Shown in pieces: positions 1 to 15,643 of a stretch of DNA of 17,570 nt. The stretch is from a virus. The translations under genes and the position numbers were made by a program. The first letter of the stretch is position 1; each line of letters opens with the position of its first letter. The stretch is taken from the IMG/VR virus record IMGVR_UViG_3300045988_058210, positions 1 through 17,570 of that record; one strand, written 5' to 3'. The notes below the pieces were generated by a model, which worked only from the letters and a program-made list of their open reading frames with translations, had not been told where the DNA came from and searched no databases.

Positions 1-9
1 ATATATATA
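1..9. repeat. Terminal dinucleotide reiteration ATATATATA, mirrored at 17562-17570
   Basis: The sequence begins atatatatag and ends ctatatatat, so both 3' template ends read 3'-TATATATA. This is a short terminal reiteration of the kind protein-primed replicons use for sliding-back or jumping-back. Confidence 0.8.
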
Positions 10-57
10 GTCCGTCCCACGCGGACATTTTCCCAATTTTGTCCGCGTACGGCGGAC
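10..57. promoter_or_regulatory. Two origin-proximal palindromes: GTCCGT-N5-GCGGAC (10-26) and GTCCGC-N5-GCGGAC (41-57); mirrored at 17514-17561
   Basis: Read directly: gtccgtcccacgcggac and gtccgcgtacggcggac, immediately inside the AT terminal reiteration. Calling them a protein-binding or origin element is inference. Confidence 0.5.
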
Positions 58-74
58 AGCACATTGCACAAAAG

Positions 75-107
75 AAACGGTGTCCGCGTGAGAAAGACAC
101 CGTTTTT
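75..107. terminator. Hairpin with flanking A and T tracts (bidirectional terminator-like) inside the ITR; mirrored at 17464-17496
   Basis: The stem is aacggtgtc (76-84) pairing with gacaccgtt (96-104), 9 bp, with an 11-nt loop. It is preceded by aaaagaaa and followed by ttttt. Confidence 0.45.
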
Positions 108-188
108 GCAAACTATTTCATTGCATTTGTTTACTTTTAATACTTATTACAACACATATGCCCGAAAATTTTTATGCATTTTTCCAAC

Positions 189-217
189 TTGACAAAAACG
201 CTTCACCCGACTAAAGT
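189..217 (+). promoter_or_regulatory. Candidate inward-facing sigma-A-type promoter in the ITR (TTGACA-17-TAAAGT); mirror copy at 17354-17382 on the minus strand
   Basis: TTGACA lies at 189-194, then a 17-nt spacer, then TAAAGT at 212-217. The -35 box is perfect but the -10 matches only the TAnnnT positions. Confidence 0.3.
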
Positions 218-337
218 GTTAGTCCAGCCTAATTGTCTATACAATTTCACAAATATTCACGTTTTCCACCCGAATCTCGCACAATTCTTCCGAAATACTT
301 ACTCATTTTGCCCGAAAAGTGGACAAAACCGACCGTT

Positions 338-356
338 TGTCCGCGGGTCGCGGACA
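338..356. promoter_or_regulatory. Perfect palindrome TGTCCGCG-ggt-CGCGGACA
   Basis: Read directly: tgtccgcgggtcgcggaca, with 8-bp arms and a 3-nt centre. It belongs to the GTCCGCG palindrome family in the ITR. Confidence 0.5.
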
Positions 357-373
357 CAACCGAAACGGAAACT

Positions 374-393
374 CACTTTAGTCTGCTAAAGTG
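374..393. other. Hairpin cactttag-tctg-ctaaagtg (8-bp stem); a related copy sits at 830-845, just outside the ITR
   Basis: Read directly. The motif aactcactttagtNNgctaaag occurs at 370-391 and again at 824-845 (ctttag-ttcg-ctaaag). Confidence 0.5.
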
Positions 394-410
394 TCCGCGG
401 GTGACGGACA

Positions 411-622
411 CGGCGCGGACTGCCGTCGGTTATCTATGTGTAACTTTAGTAATCGTGCAGTAACGCTCGGATGTCTGCCAGTGACCGCCGGAGGCGGAAG
501 TGCCGCGCCTGCCCATTCGGGGTCGTCCGCGGCGCGGACTGCCGTCGGTTATCTATGTGTAACTTTAGTAATCGTGCAGTAACGCTCGGATGTCTGGCAG
601 TGACCGCCGGAGGCGGAAGTGC
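411..622. repeat. 93-bp direct repeat pair (411-503 and 530-622, offset 119 bp)
   Basis: I aligned the two copies by hand. They are identical except ctgccag versus ctggcag (2 nt, itself a reverse-complement flip). Each copy contains the small hairpin CCGCC-gga-GGCGG. Confidence 0.9.
525..539. promoter_or_regulatory. 15-bp palindrome GTCCGCG-g-CGCGGAC
   Basis: Read directly: gtccgcggcgcggac. Confidence 0.5.
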
Positions 623-687
623 TTCGCGCGCCCTCCGGGTGACGGACACGGCGCGTCCTTTCCGTCCGCGCCTGCCCGTTCGGGGTC

Positions 688-702
688 GTCCGCTGCGCGG
701 AC
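688..702. promoter_or_regulatory. Palindrome GTCCGC-tgc-GCGGAC
   Basis: Read directly: gtccgctgcgcggac. Confidence 0.5.
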
Positions 703-925
703 TGCCAGTCATATCCTATGAGTCATGTTAGTTATCGCTTGTGATCGTGCGGTTGTCCGCCGATGACCGCCGGAGGCTGTAGCGCTTCGCGCGCCCTCCG
801 GGTGACGGACACTTCGGAAAGGCAACTCACTTTAGTTCGCTAAAGACGCACCTTTTACACATATATTACTTTGATAAACAAACTTTAACATATTAAATTG
901 CAGATGTGTTGTCGGTTACAAAATT

Positions 926-964
926 GCAGACATTCAGACCATGATAAAAGTGTTGAATGTCTGC
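926..964. terminator. Bidirectional terminator-like hairpin downstream of the last late gene
   Basis: The stem is gcagacattca (926-936) pairing with tgaatgtctgc (954-964), 11 bp, with a 17-nt loop. It is followed by atttatttt on the plus strand and by aattttgt on the minus strand, and lies 9 nt past the stop of the 973..2976 gene. Confidence 0.55.
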
Positions 965-972
965 ATTTATTT

Positions 973-2976
973 TCACTCTAAAAGAGTTTTGTTAAAGAAT
1001 TCTACATTGTTACCGTGGGAAGATGAGTTTATATATTGTGTATCAAAAGTGAATGTTAGTATATCATCAACACTATTTTTATGGTTATTAGCAAAAGTAT
1101 TGTTAATAAAAATGATGTTGGCATTAGGTGCATTGTCAGATTTATACATATTTAAGCATTTTGAATTTATGCCAGAAATTCTGCAATCTTTAACTACTAA
1201 AGATTGATTTGGATTAGCTACTGGTGATGTAGGGTAATTGCCATGGCATAAAAGGGTGCCCTGTGAATTTAATTTTTTAGCATTATAAATATCTTCGTCA
1301 ATAGACGTTAATAAGTCGCAGTTTAACAAGTAAATTGTATTATTTAATTGCATACCAGCCCCAAACGCAGGAAAAGTTTCGCTGTACATATAGCAATTTT
1401 CAAATAGAGAAGTTGTAATTTCGCCGTTAGTTACATCATCACAGAGAACAGCGTATGAACCGAGTGTATTTAGCCAGGTAGGGTTACTAACGCCAGCTAG
1501 CACATCTTTTTTCCATGCTGCATATCCTTTTCCGGTATCAGAAGAATATTTGTCAGCGGTTGCAATAAAAGTTAAATTTGCTACATAGCAAGCACCTTGT
1601 ATTCTTAACGGCGCATTGTTAAAGTGTGCAGTAGCGTCTTTAATAACGCAAGTTTCTCTGTTAATTCCAATTAAAGAGACATAATGTTTACCTTTAATAA
1701 AAAGCACTTCTTCGTAAACGCCAGGAAAAACAATAATTGTAATTGGATTTTCTTTACTTTCAATCGCATAAGCGAAATTCAAGGCAGCATTTATGGAAGT
1801 AAACATTTTAGAATTGTCTTTTGATACTGTTAATGTAGTAGAGTTGCTAATAATTTTAACATCGTACTTCTTATCAATACGTTTTGAAAAGCAGAAATAA
1901 TAAGCGTTTTTTGGTATTGGTACAATAGTTTTATTATAAACAGAACTAAGCGTATTAAAGTTACTATCATAAAATGAAACTGTGAACACATTATCATTTG
2001 AAGTAGTAGTGTCGCAAATAATTGTGCCAGTTAAAGCACGTAAGTAAGGTGAGCAGAAATAGTCTTTATTAGAACTCAATTTGCCAGTGTTCCAATTTGC
2101 GTAATATCCAGTAACACCTATCGTTTGCGGAAGAATAATTGTGTTACTAAATGCACCATGATAAAAATTAGTTAATAATTCACTTTGTAAAGTATACATA
2201 GGATTTATGATAGCTTTCATGTATTTTTTAGATGTAACAATAGAATATCTAATAAAATGGGCATCGTCACGTAGACTAAATGCTTTATTAGCGTTAGTAT
2301 AAAAACCATAAATAAATTCTTTGTTTTCATTGTAAGCACATATAAATGTATCAATGCCGCTTTTAACTTGAAGTGATGTTCTAGGCAGAACGGCAATATA
2401 GTCGGAATAACTATAGTCTTTATTTATATGAACTTTACCATCAGCGTCTATATAGTGTTCATCGGTAAAAGTAGTGCCCTCACCTAAGTTTTCTCGAAAG
2501 TAATTATCGTTTGGTGAGAACAAAGAAGAAAGTAATGAGCCGGTCATAAAGGCATCTGCCGCCGCCCCCTGTACCGTCAACGATTTATCAACTGCCGGAC
2601 TAGTCGGATTTGTAATATTAGCAGCAAGCCATTTCGTAGTTTCGTTCGAAATAGTAGGTTTAATAATAGTTAGTAACGTGCCCTCACGCACCATGTTATC
2701 CAGTTTATTGTTAATTTCTTTCTGCACATCTAAGTTGTCAAAGTAAGTATTGACAAATTCATACAATTCTTTGTAGCTTTTTACAAGCGCGTCCTGTGCG
2801 TCAAACATTTCTTTCACAGTCTTAAACAGCACAACAAATTTATTTTCAAGACTCAACGTCCCGTTGAAATCATATGGAATCCCCCGCACACTTTCTACAA
2901 CTTCACAAGCTTGCGTAATCATCTTACCGAAATCTGGCAACGTAGGAAAATCTGGAATCGTTGGTTTCTCTGCCAT
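973..2976 (-). CDS. Tail appendage / receptor-binding protein with a predicted right-handed beta-helix (pectin-lyase-fold) domain; positional analogue of phi29 gp12
   Basis: This 667-aa ORF has the SD AAGGAGGG 6 nt upstream of its ATG. It is the last gene of the morphogenesis block, after the collar genes. The C-terminal half has a pectin-lyase-like signature (ITIIVFPGVYEEVLFIKGKHYVSLIGINRETCVIKD ... LRIQGACYVANLTFIA). The N-terminus carries LTVQGAAADAFMTG, a motif common in Firmicute phage fibre proteins. Confidence 0.6.
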   Translation of the reverse strand: MAEKPTIPDFPTLPDFGKMITQACEVVESVRGIPYDFNGTLSLENKFVVLFKTVKEMFDAQDALVKSYKELYEFVNTYFDNLDVQKEINNKLDNMVREGTLLTIIKPTISNETTKWLAANITNPTSPAVDKSLTVQGAAADAFMTGSLLSSLFSPNDNYFRENLGEGTTFTDEHYIDADGKVHINKDYSYSDYIAVLPRTSLQVKSGIDTFICAYNENKEFIYGFYTNANKAFSLRDDAHFIRYSIVTSKKYMKAIINPMYTLQSELLTNFYHGAFSNTIILPQTIGVTGYYANWNTGKLSSNKDYFCSPYLRALTGTIICDTTTSNDNVFTVSFYDSNFNTLSSVYNKTIVPIPKNAYYFCFSKRIDKKYDVKIISNSTTLTVSKDNSKMFTSINAALNFAYAIESKENPITIIVFPGVYEEVLFIKGKHYVSLIGINRETCVIKDATAHFNNAPLRIQGACYVANLTFIATADKYSSDTGKGYAAWKKDVLAGVSNPTWLNTLGSYAVLCDDVTNGEITTSLFENCYMYSETFPAFGAGMQLNNTIYLLNCDLLTSIDEDIYNAKKLNSQGTLLCHGNYPTSPVANPNQSLVVKDCRISGINSKCLNMYKSDNAPNANIIFINNTFANNHKNSVDDILTFTFDTQYINSSSHGNNVEFFNKTLLE

Positions 2977-2988
2977 TATTATCCCTCC

Positions 2989-3747
2989 TTAATAAAATTG
3001 ATAGAATAACTCTCTGCAATCATCGCAAATACGCTTGTTAAGATTAAGTATGGTATCTCGGAATCTCTGAATTTCTATAGAGTAACTACCGTCGAATCCC
3101 TCATCTTCAATTGTATCATTATTATCTGCATGATACGTGTCATTACTGTTGGTTTTTGTGGTATTCTCTCCATTGCTGACCGCACTGTTATGGATGGTAT
3201 TCTGTCCCCGATCCATCGTAGACGCATAATTCGTTCCGGCAAAATTAATCTGCGGGTTGTCTGAATGAATGTTCTGTGTGTCGTTATTTGTATCAGTTGA
3301 CGTTGTGTTTTTTGCCGTGCTGTCACCGGAGATCACACCTGTTCGTGTATCGTCTTTTGTACTCGTTACTTTTCGTGTACTCTTATGAGTAATCAGCGGG
3401 TTGTATTCAAAAGTAATACTCCGGTACAACTGCTCATAGTATGGCATATTGAGTGTGAGAATCTTTTTTAGATGATATTGAAATTCTCCGACAGTTTCCA
3501 ACCCGATCTGTTCTCGAAAATACTGTAAACAGAACGATTTTTCGAACGCAAGTTTTGCGGTTTCATATTCGGGAGCGGAAGCATCGACATAAAACGGAAA
3601 GTCAAAATTGAAGATGAAAGGAACGGCGGCTTCGATCATCTGATCAATGGTCTGATTTTCAAGTGGTGAAAGTACATGATCGGAAATGACCAACTGCTCA
3701 ATGGTATTCGTCAATGTTTTCGTTTCGTAGTTATAACTAAGAAACAT
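2989..3747 (-). CDS. Lower collar protein (phi29 gp11-like)
   Basis: This 252-aa ORF lies immediately downstream of the portal gene with a TAATG stop/start overlap at 3745-3749. It has the segment YFREQIGLETVGEF typical of lower-collar proteins as I recall them, and an Asn/Thr/Ser-rich central region. Confidence 0.6.
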   Translation of the reverse strand: MFLSYNYETKTLTNTIEQLVISDHVLSPLENQTIDQMIEAAVPFIFNFDFPFYVDASAPEYETAKLAFEKSFCLQYFREQIGLETVGEFQYHLKKILTLNMPYYEQLYRSITFEYNPLITHKSTRKVTSTKDDTRTGVISGDSTAKNTTSTDTNNDTQNIHSDNPQINFAGTNYASTMDRGQNTIHNSAVSNGENTTKTNSNDTYHADNNDTIEDEGFDGSYSIEIQRFRDTILNLNKRICDDCRELFYQFY

Positions 3748-4706
3748 TATTCCACCTCGCTTTCCGGCGTGTTGTTTCCGTTGTTTTCCGGTGTGTCGTT
3801 TTCGTCATTTGTTGTGTTGAAAACATCCGGTCGGTTAATCGGTGTTACCATCTTAGAATTAAAACGTACATGGATATTCAATCCATATCGTTCATTGATA
3901 GCGTCCAATCCTCTTTGAATGGTAGCCAGATTTCCGTTTCTTGTCAACTCGATCTCTCCATCGTTGTAACTCGTTTCCGCGGAAACCAGCCGTTCCGGTT
4001 TTTCTACGCCGCTTGCTTCGATACCGAGATCAGCTAGACATTCTGCTACTTCTCTCTGTGCGGCGGTGTCAAGTTCGTTAAAAATTGGCTGTATTTTCAA
4101 ATCAATGGTATCAATTTGAATCTGTTTTCGCAGATCGTTTTTTGCTTTGATAAACGGAATATTTTTTACCCACTTCTGAATAAAGTTGTCAATGGATAAC
4201 TTCTGCGTAGAATCCCCGCTGATAACAACTGGCGTTCTCTGCTGAATGACGTTTACCCTTGTGGACGCTTTTTTCTCCGCTAGACTCTGCGAATGCAGAA
4301 TAATACTGAGAATTTCCGGTACGGCAAAAGGTCTGGCAAAAATCAACGAACTTTCGTTTTTGTCCGTCTGCTCATAATACTGACCATTCATAGCGTAGGC
4401 AATCCAATCGGTAGGAATTCCGTAAATATCGGGTTCGCCAACCAGATTAACACCGAAAACGCCGAATAGTCCGGTGATTGGTTCTTTTTTGAACAGGCAC
4501 ATTCCCTGCCATAATAGATAGGAGTTGAGCATCCGCGGCGGAATCTCATCCGGTAAACCGTCATACTCATACCGCGATAATGCCAGATTGACAAACTTGT
4601 CAAAAAAGTGCCGGAAATACATTTTTTCTTCCGGTGACGTATTCGGCTTGCTTTCCCAGTGTCCCCACACTTCCTTGTTACTCACCCGATACGGGTTATC
4701 ATACAT
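3747..4706 (-). CDS. Portal / upper collar connector protein (phi29 gp10-like)
   Basis: This 319-aa ORF has the SD AAGGAGGTG. Several segments align with phi29 gp10 as remembered: KPERLVSAETSYNDGEIELT versus [20 protein letters not shown], and INERYGLNIHVRFN versus INELYGLNVKVKFR. Its size is similar to gp10 (309 aa). Confidence 0.9.
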   Translation of the reverse strand: MYDNPYRVSNKEVWGHWESKPNTSPEEKMYFRHFFDKFVNLALSRYEYDGLPDEIPPRMLNSYLLWQGMCLFKKEPITGLFGVFGVNLVGEPDIYGIPTDWIAYAMNGQYYEQTDKNESSLIFARPFAVPEILSIILHSQSLAEKKASTRVNVIQQRTPVVISGDSTQKLSIDNFIQKWVKNIPFIKAKNDLRKQIQIDTIDLKIQPIFNELDTAAQREVAECLADLGIEASGVEKPERLVSAETSYNDGEIELTRNGNLATIQRGLDAINERYGLNIHVRFNSKMVTPINRPDVFNTTNDENDTPENNGNNTPESEVE

Positions 4707-4718
4707 GACATCACCTCC

Positions 4719-6296
4719 TTAATTATTGGAAAGACCATAGTTTCCAACGTCATCCGTGTGCCAGAACGTAACGCCTCGGTTAAACATTGCCTGCAAAAAA
4801 TTGATATCATCGGTAACACACGACCCATGCAGGCTGCAATTAACCGTTTTGACAAAATTCCAGTTTGACCGCCCGGTAATATTAGGTACTTTAATTTTGT
4901 GCGTTGCATATCCGTACATGGTAAAAAAATCGTCGATCGTTTTCGCCATCTGAGCGGTTACACTCATCACATGACAGTAAACTTGACTGCCGAACAATGC
5001 GGTGGCAACATAACTTCCAGATGAATTACCTTTTGCTGTCGGTGGAATCAAATCATGACTTTCTTTTTGTGCGTTAATGTTTTCGTTCAGTAGATATGTT
5101 CCTGTTGCCGCGGTATAAATGCTTTCAACGCCAGCAGCTAAATTTCCGCTTAATGCTCCTACTAATCCTCCGGCTAAATTTCCAATCTGCGATATTGCAT
5201 TCTGCTTTTTGGAGTAGTCCCATAACGGACTAGACTGCGCTAGAAAAGCCTGATAGCCGTCATTTGTCCAGGCACACTGTGGGAAATTATTGATGATAAA
5301 ACCGTATGGGGATTTTGACCCACCATTACGTTTATATTCACGCGGAGCCACAAAGATTGCAGGAATATTAAACATAACGCCATACACCTGCATGGTTAAT
5401 GCTCCATTTTTACCGTATTCGAAATTAAAAGTATGCTGTATTCCCGAACCATCGTTGACCAGACAATAACAATAGGGATACTGATATAGTTTATTATTTT
5501 TCGGGAGATAGCCGTCAAGTGCATCTGGTTTAACGGTTACTTGTGTATAAGCAGATGTATCTGTCTGGAAACAAGCTTCTGGTGCTTGATATACATTAAC
5601 AATCGCATCTCCGTTTCCGCTTTTGACGTACTTCTGGATAACTGTGATTAAGTCCGTATATTTTGTTTTCCGAGTAAATGTCAACCCCGATAAAATTCCC
5701 TGATTGACAATGGGTATAATATTTGTTCCGTTTTCGTCTGCACTTGCACTCAAACAATACTGCATCGGACCGAGATTCAAAAGTCTCTGTTCGCTCGGAT
5801 TGTCCACGTATTCCCCCGTTTCCAGATTTTCTGGCACTAAATTAATTCCGGCATAATCAGCTTTTTTGTCAATATGTTCCCTTTCCACATAGCACGGTTG
5901 AAGTACCACATCGTAAAAACTGTTCTGAAAACGATCGGGTTCGAAATAAATCTTGAAACTTCCGTCACTCAACCATTCTACGCGCGTCACAAAACCGAAA
6001 TACCATTCTTCCGTATAGGGGTTGTTCTGAAAAGCAAGATAATTGCATTTCAGAAATTCACTCTCATTCCCTTTTCCTTTATAAGTCAGTTCTCCCCATC
6101 TCACGGGCGCGGATTGCTTAAAAATATGGATTGCTTTTTCTCTTACGTGCGCCAGACAGCCAGCTTTTCCGTCGTTATAATATCTTACGTGTTCGTAATC
6201 ATTTCCCCATTCGATACCACTAGCCAAAATAACCGTGGTCTGCGGGGAAACCGCCGCCACATCTTCCTGTGGCGGCATCGGAATGAAATTATCCAT
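4719..6296 (-). CDS. Tail knob / distal tube protein (phi29 gp9-like)
   Basis: This 525-aa ORF has the SD GAGGGTGG. ILASGIEWGNDYEHVRYY and NYLAFQNNPYTEEWYFGFVTRVEW...IYFEPDRFQN parallel phi29 gp9 ILADVPFSNDYKNTRWF and SYIMFQNADYGNKWFYAFVTELEF...VHFEIDVLQT. It sits between the capsid and portal genes. Confidence 0.88.
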   Translation of the reverse strand: MDNFIPMPPQEDVAAVSPQTTVILASGIEWGNDYEHVRYYNDGKAGCLAHVREKAIHIFKQSAPVRWGELTYKGKGNESEFLKCNYLAFQNNPYTEEWYFGFVTRVEWLSDGSFKIYFEPDRFQNSFYDVVLQPCYVEREHIDKKADYAGINLVPENLETGEYVDNPSEQRLLNLGPMQYCLSASADENGTNIIPIVNQGILSGLTFTRKTKYTDLITVIQKYVKSGNGDAIVNVYQAPEACFQTDTSAYTQVTVKPDALDGYLPKNNKLYQYPYCYCLVNDGSGIQHTFNFEYGKNGALTMQVYGVMFNIPAIFVAPREYKRNGGSKSPYGFIINNFPQCAWTNDGYQAFLAQSSPLWDYSKKQNAISQIGNLAGGLVGALSGNLAAGVESIYTAATGTYLLNENINAQKESHDLIPPTAKGNSSGSYVATALFGSQVYCHVMSVTAQMAKTIDDFFTMYGYATHKIKVPNITGRSNWNFVKTVNCSLHGSCVTDDINFLQAMFNRGVTFWHTDDVGNYGLSNN

Positions 6297-6312
6297 GTTT
6301 CCACCCTCTTAC

Positions 6313-7623
6313 TTAATCGGTCGTAAAGTGAATGTTTGCCGTTATGGAAGATTTGTACCGACTGGTAATCACAACTTTCACGCTTGTTTCTGCGTTTGCT
6401 TTCTGTTTAAGATTCTTCTCATCTTTTGCGATTCGAAGAATGGTTGTTCCCGGGATGACAAACGTATCAGCGGAAGAGTTACCCACTACTTTTACATCGA
6501 CTGCTTTATCGGCTACTCCACTTGACTCAACAGAAAAATTTCCGCCAAAGTCAACATCTGTTCCGGCTTTCACCAGTCCCACGTTATGTGCGGTAATGGA
6601 AGAAACAAGAACCGGCTCGGTCGTAAACACGATGATCGGATAAAACAGGGAATAAGAGAACATCTCTTTTACTGTATACGTACTGTTCCAACGCAGTCCG
6701 CGATTAACGTTATCCTGTACCATCATGCGATACTGTTCGCGGATTTTGAAGAACCGCTTGTCAACCAATACTGCTACAATACTCTCAGCATCGTTAAAGT
6801 TATCAATTAACACCTGCTGTGCTTTCGGAATCATCCGATCTAAATTGTAAGCACTTGCGTAGCTGTCAACATTCATAGCCGCTTTGGTGTCAGGGTCGAC
6901 AAACAAAAGAATGGTATCTTCTTTTGCCGCCGATGTCGCGCCAGCGAAATTATACAGCGGGTTCGGGAACTGAATCTTGTCGATGTAACTCTGAATCTGT
7001 TTTGCAAGTGCGTTCGCGGATGCCTGATTCGTAACCGCCTCCACATGAACCGGGTAAATCTGACCAGCGCGCTTTGCGGATGCGATCAACTCTTTCGCTG
7101 TCGTAAATTCATCCCAATTGCAAGCGGAAACGACACTTTCCACTTTTGCCTGCACGAGACTGCGCAAACCGTAATCATCGAGAAACGCGCCGCGCATATC
7201 CTCAAACCAGATCGTCACCGGATAATCGTTATTAAAATTGATTACATGATACAGCGCCATAATGTAGCTGTCATAAATGGCGGTCGCATCTTCGATGCTG
7301 ATATTGGCATCGTGCGCGTAACCCTGTGCAAAATTTACGTAGACTTCCTGTTCTCCGTTTCCATACGGCATGGCGTTACTGTTCAGTACACGCAGAGGAT
7401 TTCGGAACGCTTCGGTACTGATGGATTGACTGGCAATCAGATTTACCAGCGCAGGAACCAGTTCGTTCCGCGCCATCGGATTGTAAGGGTCGGTTAATGT
7501 TTTTGCAATATCGGCAATATTTTCACGAGTTGCTACCGGAACTCTGTCACGGTAGTCAACACTCATCGTCTGCCGAACGGCGTTCAGCATATTAATATTT
7601 GTCATATCTAATTTTTCTGCCAT
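6313..7623 (-). CDS. Major capsid protein (phi29 gp8-like) with a C-terminal Ig-like domain
   Basis: This 436-aa ORF has the SD AAGGAGAG. NMLNAVRQTMSVDYRDRVPVATRENIADI parallels gp8 [29 protein letters not shown], and AVLVDKRFFKI...RGLRWN parallels AVLVDKDWFMV...RGLYWN. The C-terminal roughly 90 aa is beta-rich (VDVKVVGNSSADTFVIPG..), like the BIG2 domain of gp8. Confidence 0.9.
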   Translation of the reverse strand: MAEKLDMTNINMLNAVRQTMSVDYRDRVPVATRENIADIAKTLTDPYNPMARNELVPALVNLIASQSISTEAFRNPLRVLNSNAMPYGNGEQEVYVNFAQGYAHDANISIEDATAIYDSYIMALYHVINFNNDYPVTIWFEDMRGAFLDDYGLRSLVQAKVESVVSACNWDEFTTAKELIASAKRAGQIYPVHVEAVTNQASANALAKQIQSYIDKIQFPNPLYNFAGATSAAKEDTILLFVDPDTKAAMNVDSYASAYNLDRMIPKAQQVLIDNFNDAESIVAVLVDKRFFKIREQYRMMVQDNVNRGLRWNSTYTVKEMFSYSLFYPIIVFTTEPVLVSSITAHNVGLVKAGTDVDFGGNFSVESSGVADKAVDVKVVGNSSADTFVIPGTTILRIAKDEKNLKQKANAETSVKVVITSRYKSSITANIHFTTD

Positions 7624-7627
7624 TGTT

Positions 7628-7972
7628 TCACTCTCCTTTTCCGCTCAGAATGAGCTGAGACATATCAAGATCGTTGATACTTGTTGCGGTTTCTTCCGAT
7701 TCCGGCGCGTTTCCGCCAAACTCGGTTACTTTTGTGATACTTCCGCCGTGGGTAAGATCAGACCAGCGGCTTTTGATTTCTGCCACCGCGGAATCATACT
7801 TTCCTTTCAGTTCGTCCCGTTCTGCGACCAGCGCGTCACGTTCGGACATCAGTGCGCCGATGTCGGTATCTTCTGTTTTGATTTTTTCGCTGATGGCGGC
7901 GATTGCGTCACCGTGCGTTTCGATGTTTCCAATGTCGGCTACGATTTCCGACCAATACTCTTCAAGTGTCAT
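7628..7972 (-). CDS. Scaffolding protein (phi29 gp7-like by position and composition)
   Basis: This 114-aa ORF is acidic and has heptad-like coiled-coil text (ALMSERDALVAERDELKGKYDSAVAEIKSRW). It lies directly upstream of the capsid gene, with the SD AGGAGG 6 nt from its ATG. Confidence 0.55.
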   Translation of the reverse strand: MTLEEYWSEIVADIGNIETHGDAIAAISEKIKTEDTDIGALMSERDALVAERDELKGKYDSAVAEIKSRWSDLTHGGSITKVTEFGGNAPESEETATSINDLDMSQLILSGKGE

Positions 7973-7973
7973 G

Positions 7974-9026
7974 TTAAAACCTCCTTTTTAAATTGGGATA
8001 TAACCAGATTGGCATTTTATGCCGTTTTGGTTTCGTTGGGTGAGGCGGCTCGGGGGGTTCGGGTTGTCCAGGTGACAAATACCGAAATACCATGACCGCG
8101 TTATTCAAACGTTCGGAATCAGATAAATACCGATTCCCAACAAGCCATCCGGTAATTGCAGAATCTTTTGCGTGTTCGGAAATAAAATTGAAACATTCAT
8201 GTGATTTTTCCTGCCGGAACGCAAGTGTTCCATCGTCACTGATTCCCTCCCACCCTTTCATGTAAGCGGCAGTCAGTGCGTTAAGATCGGTACTGTCACT
8301 ATGTAAAAACGCTTGCAGATTTTCGTAAGCACTTGCCGCGCCTACAGAATACCATACATTCTCGTAGATCAAATACTCTAACTGTGCGTTTCCATCGTCC
8401 CGGCTGTACCCGTTCGCGTCCAGCCAATGAAATAACTGTGTGCGGCGGTTGGTGTCGGCGTTATCTGTCCATTGACCCAATCCATAGCCGGGCGCTCCTA
8501 CAATCGTACCTTGCCACAACCCAGGGTTTACGGTTGACTCCTGCCAGAAATTGCCACAGATGGAGGCAATCACATACTGGCTGATATCGCTTTCTACCGC
8601 AACCGGATACCGATAAAGATACGTCCAGGAGCTATAGGGAGACACAAACGTATTGATGGATACCTGTCTGTCCAGCGGGTAACTATCGGTATGCGCTCCC
8701 ATCGTATACCCTCCGCCGTCTGCCTGATCATACACCATTTCGGTATGACCGGAACGCCATAAGATATCACCTTTCTTCCATGGCTGATTGGCTGTACCTT
8801 TTTGAAATCCTGCACCGATCAGATACCCATCCATGCTCCGAGTGGTAAACCATGGGTTAGATGCTAAAAACCCGCCGACCGTACAACAATAACTCATGAG
8901 GGACGAACAATCATAGTACGTAATACCTCCTACGGTCTGACCCTCACGATACGTTTGGGAATATCCAACGTTTGGATTGTTACAAATCTCGATACAGGTA
9001 TTGTACGCAAGTGTCAGATCAGCCAC
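7974..9026 (-). CDS. Tail-associated peptidoglycan hydrolase: N-terminal NlpC/P60-CHAP-like cysteine peptidase plus C-terminal phage tail lysozyme domain (functional analogue of phi29 gp13)
   Basis: This 350-aa ORF starts at GTG (9024-9026), preceded by GAGGGG. Cys and His motifs are YYDCSSLM and SGHTEMVY. The C-terminal half has the GNFWQESTVNP ... GYGLGQWT pattern I associate with the phage tail lysozyme family. Its start overlaps the endolysin stop (GTGGCTGA). Confidence 0.72.
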   Translation of the reverse strand: MADLTLAYNTCIEICNNPNVGYSQTYREGQTVGGITYYDCSSLMSYCCTVGGFLASNPWFTTRSMDGYLIGAGFQKGTANQPWKKGDILWRSGHTEMVYDQADGGGYTMGAHTDSYPLDRQVSINTFVSPYSSWTYLYRYPVAVESDISQYVIASICGNFWQESTVNPGLWQGTIVGAPGYGLGQWTDNADTNRRTQLFHWLDANGYSRDDGNAQLEYLIYENVWYSVGAASAYENLQAFLHSDSTDLNALTAAYMKGWEGISDDGTLAFRQEKSHECFNFISEHAKDSAITGWLVGNRYLSDSERLNNAVMVFRYLSPGQPEPPEPPHPTKPKRHKMPIWLYPNLKRRF

Positions 9027-9723
9027 GGGTCAACCCCTCTTTTGCGACGTAACCAGTATAGACGATTCTATTGACAACCGCTTTTACAAGATACCACTCA
9101 TTTGTATAATACCCGTAGTTTCTAACACTGGTTCCGGTTGGCAACGTCAAGATGACAGTTTTATTCATTCCCGCGCCAACACGCAGATGATAGCGATCAT
9201 TGGTATGATACGCTCCTGCAATTTTCCGGTCAAAACTACGCGCGGATTCTGTTTTGATTGAACTTTCCATGACGTTATTCGGCTTTTCGTCGACGGCTCC
9301 TGCATACCGATAGTGAACGGTATTTTCATACGGAAGATCGTAATAAGACCGTACACAGATTTCTTTTCCGGTCTGATCTCCCGTCTGACCATCAATCCCG
9401 CCGTTTTCCGACTGGCTGGCGTGGACGATGCGGTTCGCGTCAACCGACATCGTTACATGATGACCAGCCGCAAGGTGGATATCCCCGCGTCTCCACGGTT
9501 TACCGCATTTCACAAAACCAGCGTTTTCCAACTGTTCACCTAGATTTCTAGTTGTGCTGTAAATGCTGACCGGAAAACCAGCATTTGCAAGTGCAGTCCC
9601 GACAAAAGAGGAGCAGTCATAATCGGGACTGTTCCGGTGTACCTGTGAGTACCCGTGCCGATCATCGGCGGCGATTTGTTCCGCCCATGCAACTGCTTTT
9701 TCGATTTTATTCATTCTTTCCAC
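9019..9723 (-). CDS. Endolysin: NlpC/P60-CHAP-like cysteine peptidase plus C-terminal SH3b-like cell-wall-binding domain
   Basis: This 234-aa ORF has the SD AGGAGGTGG. Catalytic-type motifs are DYDCSSFVG and AAGHHVTM. The C-terminus (YHLRVGAGMNKTVILTLPTGTSVRNYGYYTNEWYLVK) looks like a bacterial SH3 domain. It lies immediately after a holin-like gene. Confidence 0.78.
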   Translation of the reverse strand: MERMNKIEKAVAWAEQIAADDRHGYSQVHRNSPDYDCSSFVGTALANAGFPVSIYSTTRNLGEQLENAGFVKCGKPWRRGDIHLAAGHHVTMSVDANRIVHASQSENGGIDGQTGDQTGKEICVRSYYDLPYENTVHYRYAGAVDEKPNNVMESSIKTESARSFDRKIAGAYHTNDRYHLRVGAGMNKTVILTLPTGTSVRNYGYYTNEWYLVKAVVNRIVYTGYVAKEGLTRG

Positions 9724-9904
9724 CTCCTAAGTGCTGGCAAAGTGAATTAATTGCAGTCGTGTTCGCTTCTACGCTTTTCCGCAGTTCTTCCATTTCTGCC
9801 TTGTGTGCGTCTTTTTCTTTCACCAGATACCAGAAAAGTGCGCCGCAACAAACAATTGGAAAACCGAGACTTCCAACTAACTGCGTTACCATAGTTACAT
9901 CCAT
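9707..9904 (-). CDS. Holin-like membrane protein (BhlA/UviB-like architecture)
   Basis: This 65-aa ORF has the SD GGAGGT 6 nt upstream. It has a single N-terminal hydrophobic helix (LVGSLGFPIVCCGALFWYLV) followed by a charged coiled segment. It overlaps the endolysin start by 17 nt. Confidence 0.62.
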   Translation of the reverse strand: MDVTMVTQLVGSLGFPIVCCGALFWYLVKEKDAHKAEMEELRKSVEANTTAINSLCQHLGGGKNE

Positions 9905-10185
9905 GTTTCTACCTCCTTATCCTGCCATTTTAACCAGTCCTCAATTTCACTTAATTTATCACACATAATAAAATTATGAATGAAGCGGACAGGCGATTTA
10001 CTGTTATACGCGTTGCCATCCATAAAAAAGAAATCCCACAAATACCGAATGTGAGTCTCATAATTTTCATGTGGGACAATGATTAACGTGTCTTTTTCGT
10101 CCCCTTTATAGCGTACCGTATAAGCAAGATAAGCATTTTCTTTTTTCATCATGCTGACAATCATATTAAAAACGATATTTGCCAT
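9895..10185 (-). CDS. Hypothetical protein (96 aa), first gene after the internal promoter and structured leader
   Basis: The ORF has the SD AGGAG 5 nt upstream of its ATG and overlaps the holin start by 10 nt. I recognise no motifs. Confidence 0.6.
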   Translation of the reverse strand: MANIVFNMIVSMMKKENAYLAYTVRYKGDEKDTLIIVPHENYETHIRYLWDFFFMDGNAYNSKSPVRFIHNFIMCDKLSEIEDWLKWQDKEVETWM

Positions 10186-10200
10186 CTTTGCTCCTTTCTT

Positions 10201-10291
10201 CCCGTCCTTTGAAAAACAAGGAAACCTTTTGACCTGCCAGGACGGGGCGGTTTACTCAACCGTGGCAACCCCTCTAAAAAGGTTTCCCTAT
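10201..10291 (-). ncRNA. Structured RNA element (pseudoknot-capable, terminator-like closing stem); candidate small ncRNA (pRNA-like) or transcription attenuator
   Basis: Minus-strand RNA features, given in plus-strand coordinates. P1 is an 11-bp stem, GGAAACCUUUU (10287-10277) pairing with AAAAGGUUUCC (10230-10220), followed by UUGUUUUU (10219-10212). P2a is GGGG (10272-10269) with CCCC (10247-10244). P2b is CGGUU (10262-10258) with AACCG (10252-10248), loop GAGUA. The 6-nt bulge UUGCCA (10268-10263) is complementary to UGGCAG (10239-10234). An alternative helix pairs CCCGUCC (10246-10240) with GGACGGG (10207-10201), just upstream of the SD. Confidence 0.45.
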
Positions 10292-10297
10292 ATTTTC

Positions 10298-10326
10298 ATA
10301 ATACAGCTTTTCTGTCCGTTTGTCAA
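10298..10326 (-). promoter_or_regulatory. Near-consensus sigma-A/sigma-70 promoter (TTGACA-17-TATTAT)
   Basis: On the minus strand, TTGACA (10326-10321) is followed by the 17-nt spacer aacggacagaaaagctg and then TATTAT (10303-10298). It lies in the 165-bp gap between the ATPase gene and the 96-aa gene. Confidence 0.7.
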
Positions 10327-10334
10327 GTACAGTT

Positions 10335-10351
10335 GTCCGTCTCTTACGGAC
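10335..10351. promoter_or_regulatory. Palindrome GTCCGT-N5-ACGGAC, 8 bp upstream of the -35 box; an extra GTCCGT half-site lies in the spacer (10314-10319)
   Basis: Read directly: gtccgtctcttacggac. It has the same arm sequence and spacing as the ITR terminal palindromes at 10-26 and 41-57, and it overlaps the ATPase stop codon. Confidence 0.5.
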
Positions 10352-11490
10352 TATTTATAAAGATCAATCCCCAGCAACTCAACCGCCATATTTTTACTGT
10401 CAAGATCATCAAAACGCAAGTATGCTTTTTGGTACGCTTCAACTAACCTTACAAACAAGTAATCATAATGATCGAGCATAACCGTGTTTTGTGTGTGATC
10501 ACCGTCACGGAAAACAGCAACATAAGTGCAAGACGGGTTACACTTATGCGTGATATAAATATACCCATCTTCATAATAATCATATACCCCATACCTTTTC
10601 CCACTATGCTGAATCGTGAACAGATACCGCGACCGTCCGGTCGGCTTCTGCACAAACACGGCATCATCAATCAACATCTGATCTCCCACGCTCATGCTCT
10701 GCATGTAGTGACCGCCGCGGAACGCTTTCAAAGCGGTGTTCTCCCACATGGCTTTACTTGCACTATCGTTGTGCGTAAACTCACACACAAAACCAGTTCC
10801 ATGCAGCATTTTGGTTTCTTTCTGATACCGCTTGTGGATGCCGAAAAAAACAAAATGGGGATTGAGCAACGAAATATTATTGGATGCCATCACCAGTTTA
10901 AACCATCGGGACTGGCTTCCATTTCCACGACTGATCGTCAATAACAACGATTGCAGTTTTTCGGGTTCCCCTTTTACGTATTGCCCGCTTTCCATGCTAA
11001 ACTCATCAAAAAACAAAAAGTAGATATCCCGAAAATACGGTGACAGCTTTTTTACACTGTCCATCTTACTTCCAAAACTAAACGCGCATCCGAACGGCTC
11101 ACCATCCAAAAAGTACCGGACGACATTTCCGTTTTTGTCAAGATTTTTATAAGTAATCACACTTCCTAATTTTGGATACATTCTTAGCATATCTTCATAC
11201 ATTGCCGCCGCTCCCGTCATCTCCCCTTTTGTCCGAAAAATCCATCCCGTCTGCAATCCGTACTCTTTACACAAGATACAGCTTGCCGCGGCAAACGCAC
11301 TTGTCTTTCCAGCACTACGGTTGGAACACGTAATTGCTACGCCAGCGAAATCACCGTCTACGTCCGGCTCGGTAAATAACCGAATCGGATTGTAGTACTG
11401 AATCGTATTGCCTTTATCGTCTGCCGATTCAAATTTCACATCATAATCAGCGAAAAGTTTTTCCCAATTGATATCATTCCAAAAAATCAT
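10351..11490 (-). CDS. DNA packaging (encapsidation) ATPase, phi29 gp16-like
   Basis: This 379-aa ORF has Walker A CSNRSAGKTS (compare gp16 GARGIGKS) and Walker B IYFLFFDEFS (compare gp16 TIVFDEFI). The ATG has no adjacent SD; see the finding on the palindrome and mini-ORF at 11491-11530. Confidence 0.85.
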   Translation of the reverse strand: MIFWNDINWEKLFADYDVKFESADDKGNTIQYYNPIRLFTEPDVDGDFAGVAITCSNRSAGKTSAFAAASCILCKEYGLQTGWIFRTKGEMTGAAAMYEDMLRMYPKLGSVITYKNLDKNGNVVRYFLDGEPFGCAFSFGSKMDSVKKLSPYFRDIYFLFFDEFSMESGQYVKGEPEKLQSLLLTISRGNGSQSRWFKLVMASNNISLLNPHFVFFGIHKRYQKETKMLHGTGFVCEFTHNDSASKAMWENTALKAFRGGHYMQSMSVGDQMLIDDAVFVQKPTGRSRYLFTIQHSGKRYGVYDYYEDGYIYITHKCNPSCTYVAVFRDGDHTQNTVMLDHYDYLFVRLVEAYQKAYLRFDDLDSKNMAVELLGIDLYK

Positions 11491-11518
11491 TGTTTCACGT
11501 GAAACATTTTTGTTTCAC
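11491..11518. promoter_or_regulatory. 16-bp perfect palindrome TGTTTCACGTGAAACA plus a third half-site (TGTTTCAC), abutting the ATPase start codon
   Basis: Read directly: tgtttcacgtgaaaca (11491-11506), tttt, tgtttcac (11511-11518). The SD-like AAAGGAGG lies at 11520-11527 (minus sense). The identical 16-mer recurs at 14873-14888. Confidence 0.55.
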
Positions 11519-11540
11519 GGCCTCCTTTCTATCATTTCCC

Positions 11541-11612
11541 GCTCCGCGTCACCGCCAGTTCCCCGCCAGTCGCTCCGCAGTCAATCTCACGTTAATCGCA
11601 CGATATCGCACG
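11541..11612. repeat. Cluster of short direct repeats in the early/late intergenic region
   Basis: GCTCCGC(G/A)GTC occurs at 11541-11550 and 11572-11582. CCGCCAGT occurs at 11552-11559 and 11563-11570. ATC(T/G)CACG occurs at 11584, 11595 and 11605, spaced 11 and 10 bp apart. Confidence 0.7.
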
Positions 11613-11656
11613 TTTTGCTGCAGATGGACGCAGAGGCGGCAGAGCTCGCTGGGTAT

Positions 11657-11690
11657 CAAAAAGAGCTACGCTGGAAAACGTAGCTCTCTC
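11657..11690 (-). terminator. Rho-independent terminator ending the early/replication transcription unit
   Basis: The minus-strand RNA reads AGAGCUACG-UUUUCCAG-CGUAGCUCU followed by UUUUUGAU. The stem pairs 11679-11687 with 11662-11670 (9 bp). It lies 110 nt downstream of the 11801..12220 gene. Confidence 0.85.
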
Positions 11691-11800
11691 ACACGTATGG
11701 AGTTTTTTCAAACACAAGATATCGTAACAATCAACTACAGGTAACTTATCATACTCTTTGGTACCGTCCACCAGTCGGCGCGCGTATTGCGTTCATGTAT

Positions 11801-12220
11801 TTAAGCGAACGGGTTGAATTTTGCCAGCTCGCCGAACTTATGGACGTTTACGGCGGAAAGGAAGGCCGTGAATCCCTTTTCGCGGCGGAACTTGCTTTCG
11901 CCGATCGAGAGGAAGAGGTCAACAACTGCGCCTTTGCCGAGTTCGGCAACACTAGAAACGGTGTCGCTCTCGAATCCGTCCTCATAAAAGGCAACGCGGT
12001 AATTTGTCTGCGCTTTTACGTAGATACCATATTCGTCACTTTCTTTCGCCGGAATCCACTTTGCTTCTGCGGCGGCATCCTCACCAAACTCTTCGATAAT
12101 TTTTTCGAAGATGGCTTTCTGCTGGTCTTCTGTGATCAAAGCAGAAATAACGCTTTTGCCGTCCTCTTCCTTTGCATATTTTACAGTTACGTTGTTCAGT
12201 TTCATTTTTGCTTTACTCAT
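11801..12220 (-). CDS. Putative ssDNA-binding protein (T7 gp2.5 / DUF2815-like architecture)
   Basis: This 139-aa ORF has the SD AAGGAGAG. The N-terminal KLNNVTVKYAKEE and the C-terminal GKGAVVDLFLSIGESKFRREKGFTAFLSAVNVHKFGE resemble the OB-fold pattern of DUF2815/gp2.5-like phage SSBs as I recall it. It sits in the replication module. Confidence 0.45.
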   Translation of the reverse strand: MSKAKMKLNNVTVKYAKEEDGKSVISALITEDQQKAIFEKIIEEFGEDAAAEAKWIPAKESDEYGIYVKAQTNYRVAFYEDGFESDTVSSVAELGKGAVVDLFLSIGESKFRREKGFTAFLSAVNVHKFGELAKFNPFA

Positions 12221-12326
12221 GATTTTCTCTCCTTTTGCTTAAGTTGTTTCCTATGCAGAACCGCGGCGATTTGCTTTGATCGTTTCCGTCTTATCTGGTC
12301 ACTTCCAGACCGCGGTTGTGCGCTGA

Positions 12327-12563
12327 TTAGTCGTCCAGTCTCTTTGCTTCTGCAAAGAACTGTTCGTCAGGCATCTCGTAGCGGGCGGATACGGTATCGG
12401 TTAATACACAGATGAAATCCTCCGGAAAACCAGCGGCGGCAACAGCGGCGGTTTTTGCTTTCTGCGATTTCAGTTCTTCTGTATTACTAAAAGCGCCGAC
12501 CACCTGTTTTGTGTTTCTGTCAATGACAGAGTAGATAAAATTTTCGATTTTTGTTCTAACCAT
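12327..12563 (-). CDS. Hypothetical protein (78 aa)
   Basis: I trimmed the ORF-track call 12327..12638 to the internal ATG at 12561-12563. That ATG is preceded by GGAGA with 7-nt spacing, and the longer version would begin inside the promoter. Confidence 0.6.
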   Translation of the reverse strand: MVRTKIENFIYSVIDRNTKQVVGAFSNTEELKSQKAKTAAVAAAGFPEDFICVLTDTVSARYEMPDEQFFAEAKRLDD

Positions 12564-12609
12564 ACTTTTTTCTCCTTTCGTTATATTGGTATTTGTTCTT
12601 ACAAGTATT

Positions 12610-12638
12610 ATAATAGCATGTCCGACCAAAAAAGTCAA
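12610..12638 (-). promoter_or_regulatory. Near-consensus sigma-A/sigma-70 promoter (TTGACT-17-TATTAT, with TG at the extended -10 position)
   Basis: On the minus strand, TTGACT (12638-12633) is followed by the 17-nt spacer tttttggtcggacatgc and then TATTAT (12615-12610). It lies in the AT-rich gap after the DNA polymerase gene. Confidence 0.65.
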
Positions 12639-12772
12639 TAGTTAAAATAAGAAAATAAAGAAAATATCCAAAAATAAAAGCAGGATGGAAAGGTCGAGTT
12701 CTTCCTCATGTAACGCCCAGATCGTTGATAATACCAAAAACATAAAAAACACAAAATATCCCATATCGTCTC

Positions 12773-14932: not shown

Positions 14933-14942
14933 GGTTATTACC

Positions 14943-15521
14943 TCACTTTAATTTAGTTCTATTCTTATTAAAAAGTTCTTCCTCCGTAATATATCCATCA
15001 AGAAAGTCCTCATACTCTTCCAGAATATCTTCGAATTCAATTCCGCTATCATTTAATTTCGAAATAAAATCGTCAATGATCTGATCGGATTCCACCTGCT
15101 TTCGCAAATCCTTTTTGTAGATATTGGATGTTAGAAAACGATACAAGTCTTTATAGTTATCTTCTGTTACTTCTCCATTAATTTTATTCTTAGACTTGTC
15201 AAAACGTCTCTGCATTTCTGCAATCCGGTATCCCTCCAGTGTGGTTTCTGGAGAAGTCAAAAACGCAATCATGGTATCCCATTCCTGCCGGATGGATGCA
15301 TCCGAACGTTTCGTACCTTTCAAGAAACGATTTTTTTCTCGTCCTTGTGACGCGAAAAACTCCTTTACACGTCCGTATTCCCATTGGTCGCGTGCGTGTA
15401 CTTTTTCCAGTTTGGCAAGGCGGCTATTCGCCGCCGCCGCAACTTTAGGTAATTCGCGTTTGATCTGGTCAATGGATAAGTCAAGGTCTTGATAGATGCT
15501 ATAGTCTTTTGAGTTCGGCAC
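14943..15521 (-). CDS. Putative terminal protein (priming protein), assigned by position and composition
   Basis: This 192-aa ORF starts at GTG, preceded by AAGGGGG. It lies immediately upstream of the polymerase gene, as gene 3 precedes gene 2 in phi29. It is highly charged, with a basic N-terminal half (KVAAAANSRLAKLEKVHAR) and an acidic C-terminus (IEFEDILEEYEDFLDGYITEEE) carrying Ser/Tyr/Thr candidates. I cannot verify any sequence homology. Confidence 0.4.
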   Translation of the reverse strand: MPNSKDYSIYQDLDLSIDQIKRELPKVAAAANSRLAKLEKVHARDQWEYGRVKEFFASQGREKNRFLKGTKRSDASIRQEWDTMIAFLTSPETTLEGYRIAEMQRRFDKSKNKINGEVTEDNYKDLYRFLTSNIYKKDLRKQVESDQIIDDFISKLNDSGIEFEDILEEYEDFLDGYITEEELFNKNRTKLK

Positions 15522-15631
15522 TATTCACACCCCCTTATAAAGATTCGCAATTTATCAGAAATAATCTCGAAACCTATTACTTCTATGCGAACATAGCCGC
15601 AATACAATTTTATAAAATCTACTACTCTCAC
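15521..15631 (-). CDS. Micro-ORF (36 aa, VRVVDFIKLYCGYVRIEVIGFEIISDKLRIFIRGCE), absent from the ORF track
   Basis: I translated this by hand. It starts at GTG (15629-15631), 7 nt after a strong SD, TAAGGAGGT, which overlaps the stop of the upstream gene. Its TAG stop (15521-15523) overlaps the GTG start of the next gene by 1 nt. It fills an otherwise unexplained 122-bp gap. Confidence 0.45.
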   Translation of the reverse strand: MRVVDFIKLYCGYVRIEVIGFEIISDKLRIFIRGCE

Positions 15632-15643
15632 TGTGATACCTCC

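Follow-up and report, generated by a model that had tools for sequence, protein, structure and literature searches.

A conserved 19-bp dyad element at the genome ends of phi29-like gut phages and its possible role in organizing protein-primed origins

The IMG/VR virus record IMGVR_UViG_3300045988_058210 (positions 1 to 17,570; this whole stretch is hereafter called the window) is a complete or near-complete linear genome of 17,570 bp from a phi29-like podophage. Its ends form a perfect inverted repeat of 816 bp, the right inverted terminal repeat (ITR) being an exact copy of the left. Each ITR carries 19-bp palindromic elements of the form TGTCCG-N7-CGGACA. The two outermost elements lie at a fixed distance from the genome end and from each other, and this arrangement is conserved in very divergent relatives. 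The elements are putative recognition sites on double-stranded DNA for a two-fold symmetric protein with the half-site RCGGACA, and they may organize the protein-primed origins of replication. We give this interpretation slightly better than even chances and rank it first. Silencing by a conserved host regulator, in the manner of Spo0A, ranks second.

Palindromic sites and their conservation at the genome ends

An earlier note on this sequence reported at least seven inverted pairs with a shared arm in the ITR, at a density far beyond chance. All six of the palindromes that it listed are present at the coordinates given there, and the seventh is a GTCCGCG half copy (82-88) within a hairpin at 76-104. 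The density is confirmed by shuffling. The ITR alone contains 11 copies of GTCCGCG, where 0.31 are expected from 2000 dinucleotide shuffles of the ITR (shuffle maximum 3); shuffling the ITR itself takes its higher GC content into account. In the same shuffles 0.003 copies of GTCCG-N7-CGGAC are expected, and each ITR has four. In the window as a whole there are 23 copies of GTCCGCG on both strands, compared with 1.9 expected; the two ITRs account for 22 of these and the 15.9-kb body for one. The ITR copies are partly non-independent, as some belong to the mirrored right ITR or to tandem copies of a module (525-539, 688-702, and the half-sites at 643 and 806). The non-repetitive segment 1-411 is still enriched by itself, with six copies compared with 0.05 expected. 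Of 26 copies of the extended half-site RCGGACA in the window, the ITRs contain 22, and two of the four in the body belong to one promoter.

The palindromes share an arm, as the earlier note proposed for a single family, but they do not share one geometry and fall into two spacing classes. The first class is the 19-bp TGTCCG-N7-CGGACA, represented by S1, S2, S4 and S5 and by the degenerate S3. S1 (AGTCCGTCCCACGCGGACA; 9-27, mirrored at 17544-17562) includes GTCCGT-N5-GCGGAC at 10-26 and corresponds to nt 13-31 from the true end in relatives. It is followed by a conserved spacer of 12-13 nt made up of a T-run, a C-tract and an A/T segment (TTTTCCCAATTT; 28-39), and then by S2 (TGTCCGCGTACGGCGGACA; 40-58, mirrored at 17513-17531), which includes GTCCGC-N5-GCGGAC at 41-57. 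S3 (TGTCCGCGTGAGAAAGACA; 81-99, mirrored at 17472-17490) is enclosed by the 76-104 hairpin (AACGGTGTC...GACACCGTT), which is terminator-like and precedes a T-run. Further inside the ITR are S4, a perfect palindrome of 8 + 3 + 8 nt (TGTCCGCG-GGT-CGCGGACA; 338-356, mirrored at 17215-17233), and S5 (TGTCCGCGGGTGACGGACA; 392-410, mirrored at 17161-17179). The centre-to-centre distances in the window are 31, 41 and 54 bp, or approximately three, four and five helical turns. The second class is the 15-bp GTCCG-N5-CGGAC, found at 525-539 (mirrored at 17032-17046) and at 688-702 (mirrored at 16869-16883).

The conservation results are sequence comparisons of metagenomic contigs. No DNA-level similarity to any GenBank phage is found, and IMG/VR contains approximately 110 close relatives with capsid identities of 92-96%. 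The close relatives are approximately 90-94% identical over the first 410 nt, and the arms of S4 and S5 are more conserved than their flanks. Dozens of IMG/VR contigs have S4 at approximately 340 nt from their end, and a degenerate 19-mer of the S3 type is also present in L147, L153 and L144. Two more distant relatives found by capsid homology (L145 and L148, 66-68% identity in the major capsid protein, MCP) have terminal S1 and S2 sites approximately 31 bp apart and one to three additional 19-mers 200-300 nt inside. In these relatives the arms are kept and the central seven bases differ. In all relatives with complete ends, the centres of S1 and S2 are 31-32 bp apart.

A pattern scan for the S1-S2 arrangement, in which ten arm bases were fixed, covered 2.9 million viral contigs. 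The pair is located within 140 nt of 139 contig ends, which represent 61 distinct variants. These belong to the clade of the window and to a second group with 13-14-kb genomes that have the pair at both ends. The second group is phi29-like, with a connector, capsid protein, gp16 and PolB. The polymerases of the carriers are 30-45% identical to one another and to that of the window, and the GC content of the carriers ranges from 28 to 45%. By BLAST, the window and the 13-kb clade have in common only the polymerase (33-41%), a holin-like protein of 65 aa and lysins; some genomes of the 13-kb clade also match the tail proteins p667 and p252 over short stretches. The 13-kb clade was also sampled through its own capsid protein, independently of the motif. 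Nearly every contig end of this clade that reaches AAAGTATATACA has four sites, S1-S4, at intervals of 32-33 bp, with the inner sites more degenerate. In the pattern-derived set, the outer T and A of the 19-mer, which were left free in the pattern, vary only at the first base of S1. The spacer between S1 and S2 is 12 or 13 nt long in 59 of the 61 unique segments, and all but two of its 31 variants have a central C-tract.

The distance from S1 to the genome end is also fixed. The modal distance from GTCCG to the contig end is 13 nt, and this is the longest natural prefix, which recurs in many independent contigs of several clades and at both of their ends, so S1 begins 12 nt from the true end. 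The terminal sequences ahead of it differ between clades (AAACATATATAT-, AAAGTATATACA and GCGATTATCTCA), and several clades that do not share a terminal 12-mer all have S1 from nt 13 onward. In the window, GTCCG is preceded by 9 nt compared with 13 nt in relatives (AAACATATATATA), and the window starts with ATATATATAGTCCG where many independent relatives start with AAACATATATATAGTCCG. The assembly of the window thus probably lacks 4 nt (AAAC) at each end, and its A/T-rich terminal segment (1-8) is probably 4 nt short of that of relatives, which have AAACATATATAT-A/T before GTCCG. The 13-kb clade begins with AAAGTA, the same hexamer as the phi29 ITR.

Outside these two clades, the cultured Clostridium phage HM2, which has a polymerase of 45% identity, carries two 19-mers of diverged sequence (10-28 and 40-58) in the same geometry: 9 nt, a 19-mer, 11 nt and a second 19-mer follow one another from the end. 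Salmonella phage astrithr (polymerase 37% identical) has no such sites. No relatives of HM2 are found in plasmid collections, and HM2-like viral contigs are mostly cut short of the ends. L151, which has a polymerase 51% identical to that of the window and lacks the motif, was considered as a counter-example and discounted, since the contig stops at the inner ITR border. The final 30 bases of the Logan contigs L144, L151 and L152 are identical and represent a k-1 overlap at that border. In some IMG/VR contigs (L023, L154, L196 and L203), remnants of Nextera adaptor (…TGTATAAGAGACAG) are fused to the phage end. The ITR lengths apparent from contigs of either kind are artefacts.

The earlier note had named absence of the motif from related ITRs as refuting, and it is present in the ITRs of very divergent relatives. 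The proposal of binding sites for a dimeric protein is supported in part: the sequence of the 19-mers, their spacing and their distance from the end are all conserved, and the binding itself is predicted.

Candidate binding proteins and host-type sites

Several observations weigh against a two-fold symmetric protein as the reader of these sites. No helix-turn-helix or other DNA-binding domain is detected in the window proteins with Pfam or PHROGs. The small early proteins are acidic (pI 4.9-5.4) except for the window-specific p142. A small DNA-binding protein common to both site-carrying clades is not found with BLAST, iterated hidden Markov model (HMM) or profile-profile searches. A palindrome would not be an obvious target for the heterodimeric complex of terminal protein (TP) and DNA polymerase (Pol). 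The spacing of the sites is not uniform, with N5 at the GC-rich module of the inner ITR, N0 and N3 variants in L026 and L152 and direct repeats at a promoter, so one rigid dimer cannot read all of them. Kinship of the polymerase does not predict the presence of the sites: astrithr (37%) has none, HM2 (45%) has diverged sites and the 13-kb clade (33-41%) has the consensus. The conservation of the arms in the pattern-derived set is partly circular, and only the homology-derived sets are unbiased. When single-stranded, S1 and S2 can pair with one another as one long hairpin (-16.5 kcal/mol, z -6), which makes a single-strand role thermodynamically feasible.

The families that the two clades have in common by HMM and profile-profile comparison are the polymerase, the holin-like 65-aa protein, a collar-like protein and, weakly and by position, the TP; the lysins are matched by BLAST only. 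The earlier note suggested the small early proteins as binders. None of them is shared with the second clade, which carries the same sites, and they are poor candidates. In the TP candidate only the first 120 residues are basic. Searches of PDB sequences with Pol and TP gave nothing useful. By elimination, the candidates for the binding protein are the TP/Pol machinery, a small phage protein that has diverged past recognition and a conserved host protein.

The last candidate leads to the second-ranked explanation, in which the sites bind a conserved host regulator that acts as a negative developmental switch and silences the origins and a key promoter according to the state of the host. We regard this as possible and clearly less probable than origin-organizing sites. 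Phi29 provides a precedent. It has host Spo0A sites at both origins (four consecutive 0A boxes) and at promoters, together with five parS sites, through which its genome becomes trapped in spores (PMC2731898). The window also contains two perfect 16-mers of the Firmicute parS consensus (TGTTTCACGTGAAACA), at 11491-11506 and 14873-14888, where 0.17 are expected even with three mismatches allowed. One immediately precedes the start codon of the ATPase gene, and the polymerase gene contains the other in its 5' end. Between one and five perfect parS copies are present in phage HM2 and in almost every relative from the two clades. A LexA-box-like sequence (AAACATATGTTCG) is located in the ITRs of the 13-kb clade (L157, L228 and others) at approximately nt 130-145 from the end, directly after the fourth site. 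The half-sites are distributed as 0A boxes are, at both genome ends and at a key promoter. No phage-encoded candidate is common to both clades. The site is constant across GC contents of 28-45%, missing in Gram-negative phages whose polymerase is equally related and diverged in HM2, which has a closer polymerase and a different host.

Against a host switch, we know of no regulator whose consensus gives a convincing match to the half-site, among those of Spo0A, SpoIIID, the DnaA box, CggR, TnrA/GlnR, LexA and parS. A scan of genome_contigs for a host with the S1-S2 pattern gave only high-GC chance hits among the matches listed. The half-site TGTCCG(C/T) does not match the 0A box TGTCGAA (PMC2731898). 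S1 lies exactly 12 nt from the end despite different terminal sequences, while 0A boxes shift position between phi29 and Nf (PMC2731898). This invariant distance argues for a role in the core of the origin rather than as an accessory switch.

Base pairing, promoters and ITR turnover

The earlier note also proposed that the palindromes could be cruciform or hairpin elements on displaced single strands, and they might likewise act in transcripts, as telomere-like fold-backs, pause signals or terminators. We regard this as improbable for the 19-bp sites. It was assessed with 23 unique 19-mers from termini that were found through protein homology only. The six outer pairs are complementary in 83-100% of these 19-mers, and the inner pairs 7-13, 8-12 and 9-11 are Watson-Crick in only 39%, 13% and 17%. 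Complementarity is confined to the 6-bp arms and leaves a 7-nt loop. All seven of the changes that affect a single arm (for example, TATCCG, TGTACG, AGTCCT and site 1 of HM2) break pairing and are uncompensated. Symmetric double changes are found only in site 2 of HM2 and in L388, and these are expected under both a protein site and a hairpin; a symmetric variant, TGTCCAC-N5-GTGGACA, occurs in one distant relative. Degenerate sites retain one arm only (S3 of the window, and S3 and S4 of the 13-kb clade), and HM2 retains the geometry without complementarity. All sites in all clades share one arm word, even where the genome is only 28% GC; a hairpin would not need such constancy.

As folded single strands, segments 1-62 (-16.5 kcal/mol, z -6.2) and 330-415 (-25.3 kcal/mol, z -4.3) are far more stable than shuffles. 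Such z-scores are expected when any palindromic word is repeated, so the stability is compatible with hairpins and with protein sites alike; the region of the 15-bp palindrome, when isolated, has a z of -0.8. The 76-104 element is a good hairpin (-9.9 kcal/mol, z -3.8) with a T-run, and L153 has one compensatory pair in its outer stem. In the homology-derived sets as a whole, the arms are near-invariant and the central 7 nt are variable and mostly non-complementary. Together with the uncompensated arm changes, this pattern is better explained by a two-fold symmetric protein that reads the sequence than by conservation of a stem.

The sites could also be ordinary transcriptional operators of the late promoter and of promoters adjacent to the ITR, with no role in replication. 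We consider this slightly less probable than hairpins. Outside the ITRs, GTCCG-N7-CGGAC occurs in exact form only once, at 10335-10351, within a 19-bp site on the minus strand (AGTCCGTAAGAGACGGACA; 10334-10352). The gp16-like ATPase gene overlaps this site with its stop codon, and the site is 7 nt upstream of the -35 box of a near-consensus sigma-70-type promoter on the same strand (10298-10326; TTGACA at 10326-10321, a 17-nt spacer and TATTAT at 10303-10298). Another ACGGACA half-site, at 10319-10313 in the promoter spacer, is 21 bp away from the first, and the two form direct repeats around the -35 box of a strong promoter. Both ACGGACA half-sites are kept in approximately 50 close relatives. 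The left arm of the upstream site drifts among these relatives, and L153 has a perfect 19-mer at this position. In the 13-kb clade, site arrays lie upstream of the first promoters, and there is no equivalent of the internal promoter site.

A promoter-like TTGACA-17-TAAAGT is located between the site clusters of the window, at 189-217. It is doubtful as a conserved ITR promoter, as the spacing in L145 and L148 is 11 nt and not 17. An early promoter just inside the right ITR border (TTGACA at 16708-16713, -10 box at 16685-16690) has palindromes of its own: two copies of TTTTCTAGAAAA, at 16718-16729 and 16695-16706, bracket the promoter region 16685-16713. Similar repeats (TTCTAGAA) are present in L147. 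A separate regulator probably has the TTTTCTAGAAAA repeats as its operator. Only the close lineage of the window has the internal promoter site, and S1 and S2 (nt 13-62 from the end), which are the most conserved copies, have no promoter near them. These points argue against a purely transcriptional function. Conversely, the half-sites at the internal promoter show that the element is not purely a feature of the ITR or origin. Their conservation at a promoter for lysis and structural genes suggests that the protein reading the half-site likely acts on late transcription too in the lineage of the window.

The internal promoter is directly followed by a structured leader RNA of approximately 80 nt on the minus strand (about 10212-10291), which ends in a T-run and precedes the lysis and structural genes. 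The inner hairpin of the leader has compensatory changes in close relatives (CGGTT/AACCG to CGGCT/AGCCG to CAGTT/AACTG). The closing helix is different in L147, and its changes are compensatory in L147 and L153. The leader has a conserved core, GGGxUGCCA...CCC...GGCA, that may form a pseudoknot and has no Rfam match. In L144, L145 and L148 the leader is longer and ends in GGTTCGAnTCC, which resembles a tRNA T-arm; ARAGORN does not find a tRNA in this part. The leader could be a substitute for packaging RNA (pRNA) or a regulatory leader.

The inner half of the ITR consists of three tandem copies of a GC-rich module of approximately 120-160 bp, termed Y (412-816, mirrored at 16755-17159), with cores at 414-502, 533-621 and 696-784. 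The two 15-bp palindromes stand at the start of Y copies 2 (GTCCGCG-G-CGCGGAC) and 3 (GTCCGC-TGC-GCGGAC). Quasi-palindromes of the form CTCCG-N5-CGGACA end copy 2 (633-648, with ACGGACA at 642-648) and copy 3 (796-811, with ACGGACA at 805-811, 5 nt from the ITR boundary). Most relatives have a single Y copy, which never lies outside the ITR and has a constant orientation towards the genome end. The 15-bp palindromes are not artefacts of tandem-copy junctions, as the single-copy modules also open with GTCCGC-N3-GCGGAC and close with CTCCG-N5-CGGACA. The units of approximately 119 bp were also considered as a pRNA-like RNA closed by CGCGGAC...GTCCGCG. This was rejected, since the units fold no better than shuffles on either strand (z -1.0 to +0.2) and Rfam, including its pRNA model, has zero matches at E<=1 across the window.

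The inner ITR boundary (816) is inside a duplicated segment of approximately 48 bp, in which 344-391 matches 799-845. Close relatives with complete ends have ITRs of 425-644 bp with one or two Y modules, compared with 816 bp and three modules in the window, and the ITR appears to grow and shrink through recombination between these repeats. Part of the palindrome count comes from such duplication, in the tandem Y copies and the mirrored ITR, and Y copy number and ITR length vary between close relatives over 425-816 bp; even so, it is highly unlikely that the palindromes are functionless by-products of ITR turnover by duplication, fold-back repair or recombination, as the sequence, spacing and position of S1 and S2 persist among polymerases of 30-45% identity and at GC contents down to 28%, which neutral by-products would not do.

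Other repeats are also present in the ITRs. A second palindrome family, CACTTTAG-N4-CTAAAGTG, abuts S5 at 374-393 and occurs again at 828-845, just outside the ITR, with a half copy at 211-218. This family is conserved in L145, L147 and L153, and the 13-kb clade has an analogue, AGTTAGT-N4-ACTAACT. Repeated CCCGAAAA words, at approximately 160-170 and 309-320, are conserved as well. In the 13-kb clade, the GC-rich repeats past AAACATATGTTCG (…CTCCCTCCGGTCGCTCCGCC…) resemble the GC-rich module of the window.

Proposed origin structure and comparison with known systems

If the 19-bp elements are origin-organizing protein sites, dimers of the binding protein would occupy S1 and S2, and S3 more weakly, on one face of the helix. 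S2 would lie three helical turns inward of S1, beyond the spacer of T-run, C-tract and A residues, with one or two weaker sites next to it. The terminal ~100 bp could then be bent or clamped across the C-tract spacer, so that the 12-bp terminus is positioned or opened for TP-Pol. Such a phased nucleoprotein complex would define or activate the origin for the initiation complex of TP and DNA polymerase. In the lineage of the window, the half-site may have been copied to a second cluster (S4 and S5, 338-410), to the borders of the Y modules (giving 11 half-sites per ITR) and to the late promoter, and one protein could thereby link the origins with late transcription. The extra copies might strengthen the complex, or they might serve as a copy-number-dependent sink for the protein on the late promoter.

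The nearest functional analogue is the adenovirus origin, in which a core at nt 9-18 is accompanied by NFI and Oct-1 sites in the ITR. Both adenovirus and the window phage would have linear protein-primed genomes with ITRs, in which sequence-specific sites come straight after a short terminal core, within ~60 bp of the end and at a constant distance from it. The NFI site is, like the 19-mers, a dimer-type palindrome with a fixed spacer. Adenovirus uses two different sites and two identified host factors, whereas the window phage has the same 19-mer two to four times, in helical phase, for a putative binder. In the window phage, unlike adenovirus, additional copies are located hundreds of base pairs inside the ITR and at an internal promoter.

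In phi29, the standard textbook example for protein-primed replication, the origin is defined by the TP and a few terminal bases, aided by p6, which is not motif-specific. Binding of p6 is periodic, every 24 bp, and is not sequence-specific in the manner of an operator. By contrast, the periodicity in the window phage is 31-33 bp with a defined motif, and no p6 homologue is detected among the window proteins with Pfam or PHROGs. Other features are held in common with phi29. On the minus strand, Pfam identifies a phi29 connector (3747-4706), a gp9 tail knob (4719-6296), a phi29-type MCP (6313-7623), a gp16 packaging ATPase (10351-11490) and lysins. By PHROGs, 12773-14932 encodes a DNA polymerase of 719 aa, of the PolB type as in phi29, and the 192-aa gene immediately upstream of it is, by position, the equivalent of the TP gene. 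Host parS sites are present in both phages. In phi29, multimeric complexes of p6 and Spo0A near both ends control initiation (PMC2731898). The 0A boxes are 7-mers that do not form palindromic pairs and vary in position, whereas in the window phage the 19-bp sites are palindromic and their distance from the end is invariant. The phi29 ITR is 6 bp long, and the replication proteins of phi29 have also been listed (PMC4974454). A 2024 review of phi29-like diversity mentions ITRs for phi29 only, and the word palindrome does not appear in it (PMC11476376). No description of the 19-bp motif was found in the open-access literature.

Two other types of origin have partial similarities. The telomeres of Streptomyces linear chromosomes and plasmids and the ITR hairpins of parvoviruses are single-strand fold-backs in which pairing is conserved. 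Like the window, they have short GC-rich palindromes clustered in the terminal few hundred base pairs, and Streptomyces replicons also carry terminal proteins. Unlike them, the window has conserved arm sequences, no compensation and 7-nt loops on stems of 5-6 bp. In iteron or operator-array origins, such as the O-protein sites of lambda, the same protein often autoregulates a promoter, and several phased copies of a short dyad-symmetric site lie beside an A/T-rich replication start, as in the window. Replication from those origins begins inside the replicon, with melting and helicase loading, whereas the sites of the window abut a free, protein-capped DNA end.

More broadly, we tentatively suggest that a large group of uncultivated phi29-like gut phages uses a sequence-specific dyad origin module, composed of a 12-nt terminus, two phased 19-mers and a C-tract spacer, that is read by TP/Pol or by an unrecognized initiator, and that in the lineage of the window the many additional ITR copies (11 half-sites per ITR) may titrate this protein from the two half-sites of the late promoter. 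This broader proposal is held at low confidence, only marginally above that given to a host switch. In the titration variant, if true, late transcription would be switched on by genome copy number. The 19-mer has a defined sequence that could be used as bait for the initiator or host factor, and it could also help to recognize metagenomic contigs of this phage group whose genome ends are complete. Its half-site is also found at the late promoter, which suggests that replication may be tied to the early-to-late switch. If the origin-organizing interpretation is true, many gut phages that share little beyond their polymerase would have in common a solution to the origin that differs from that of phi29 and is closer to that of adenovirus.

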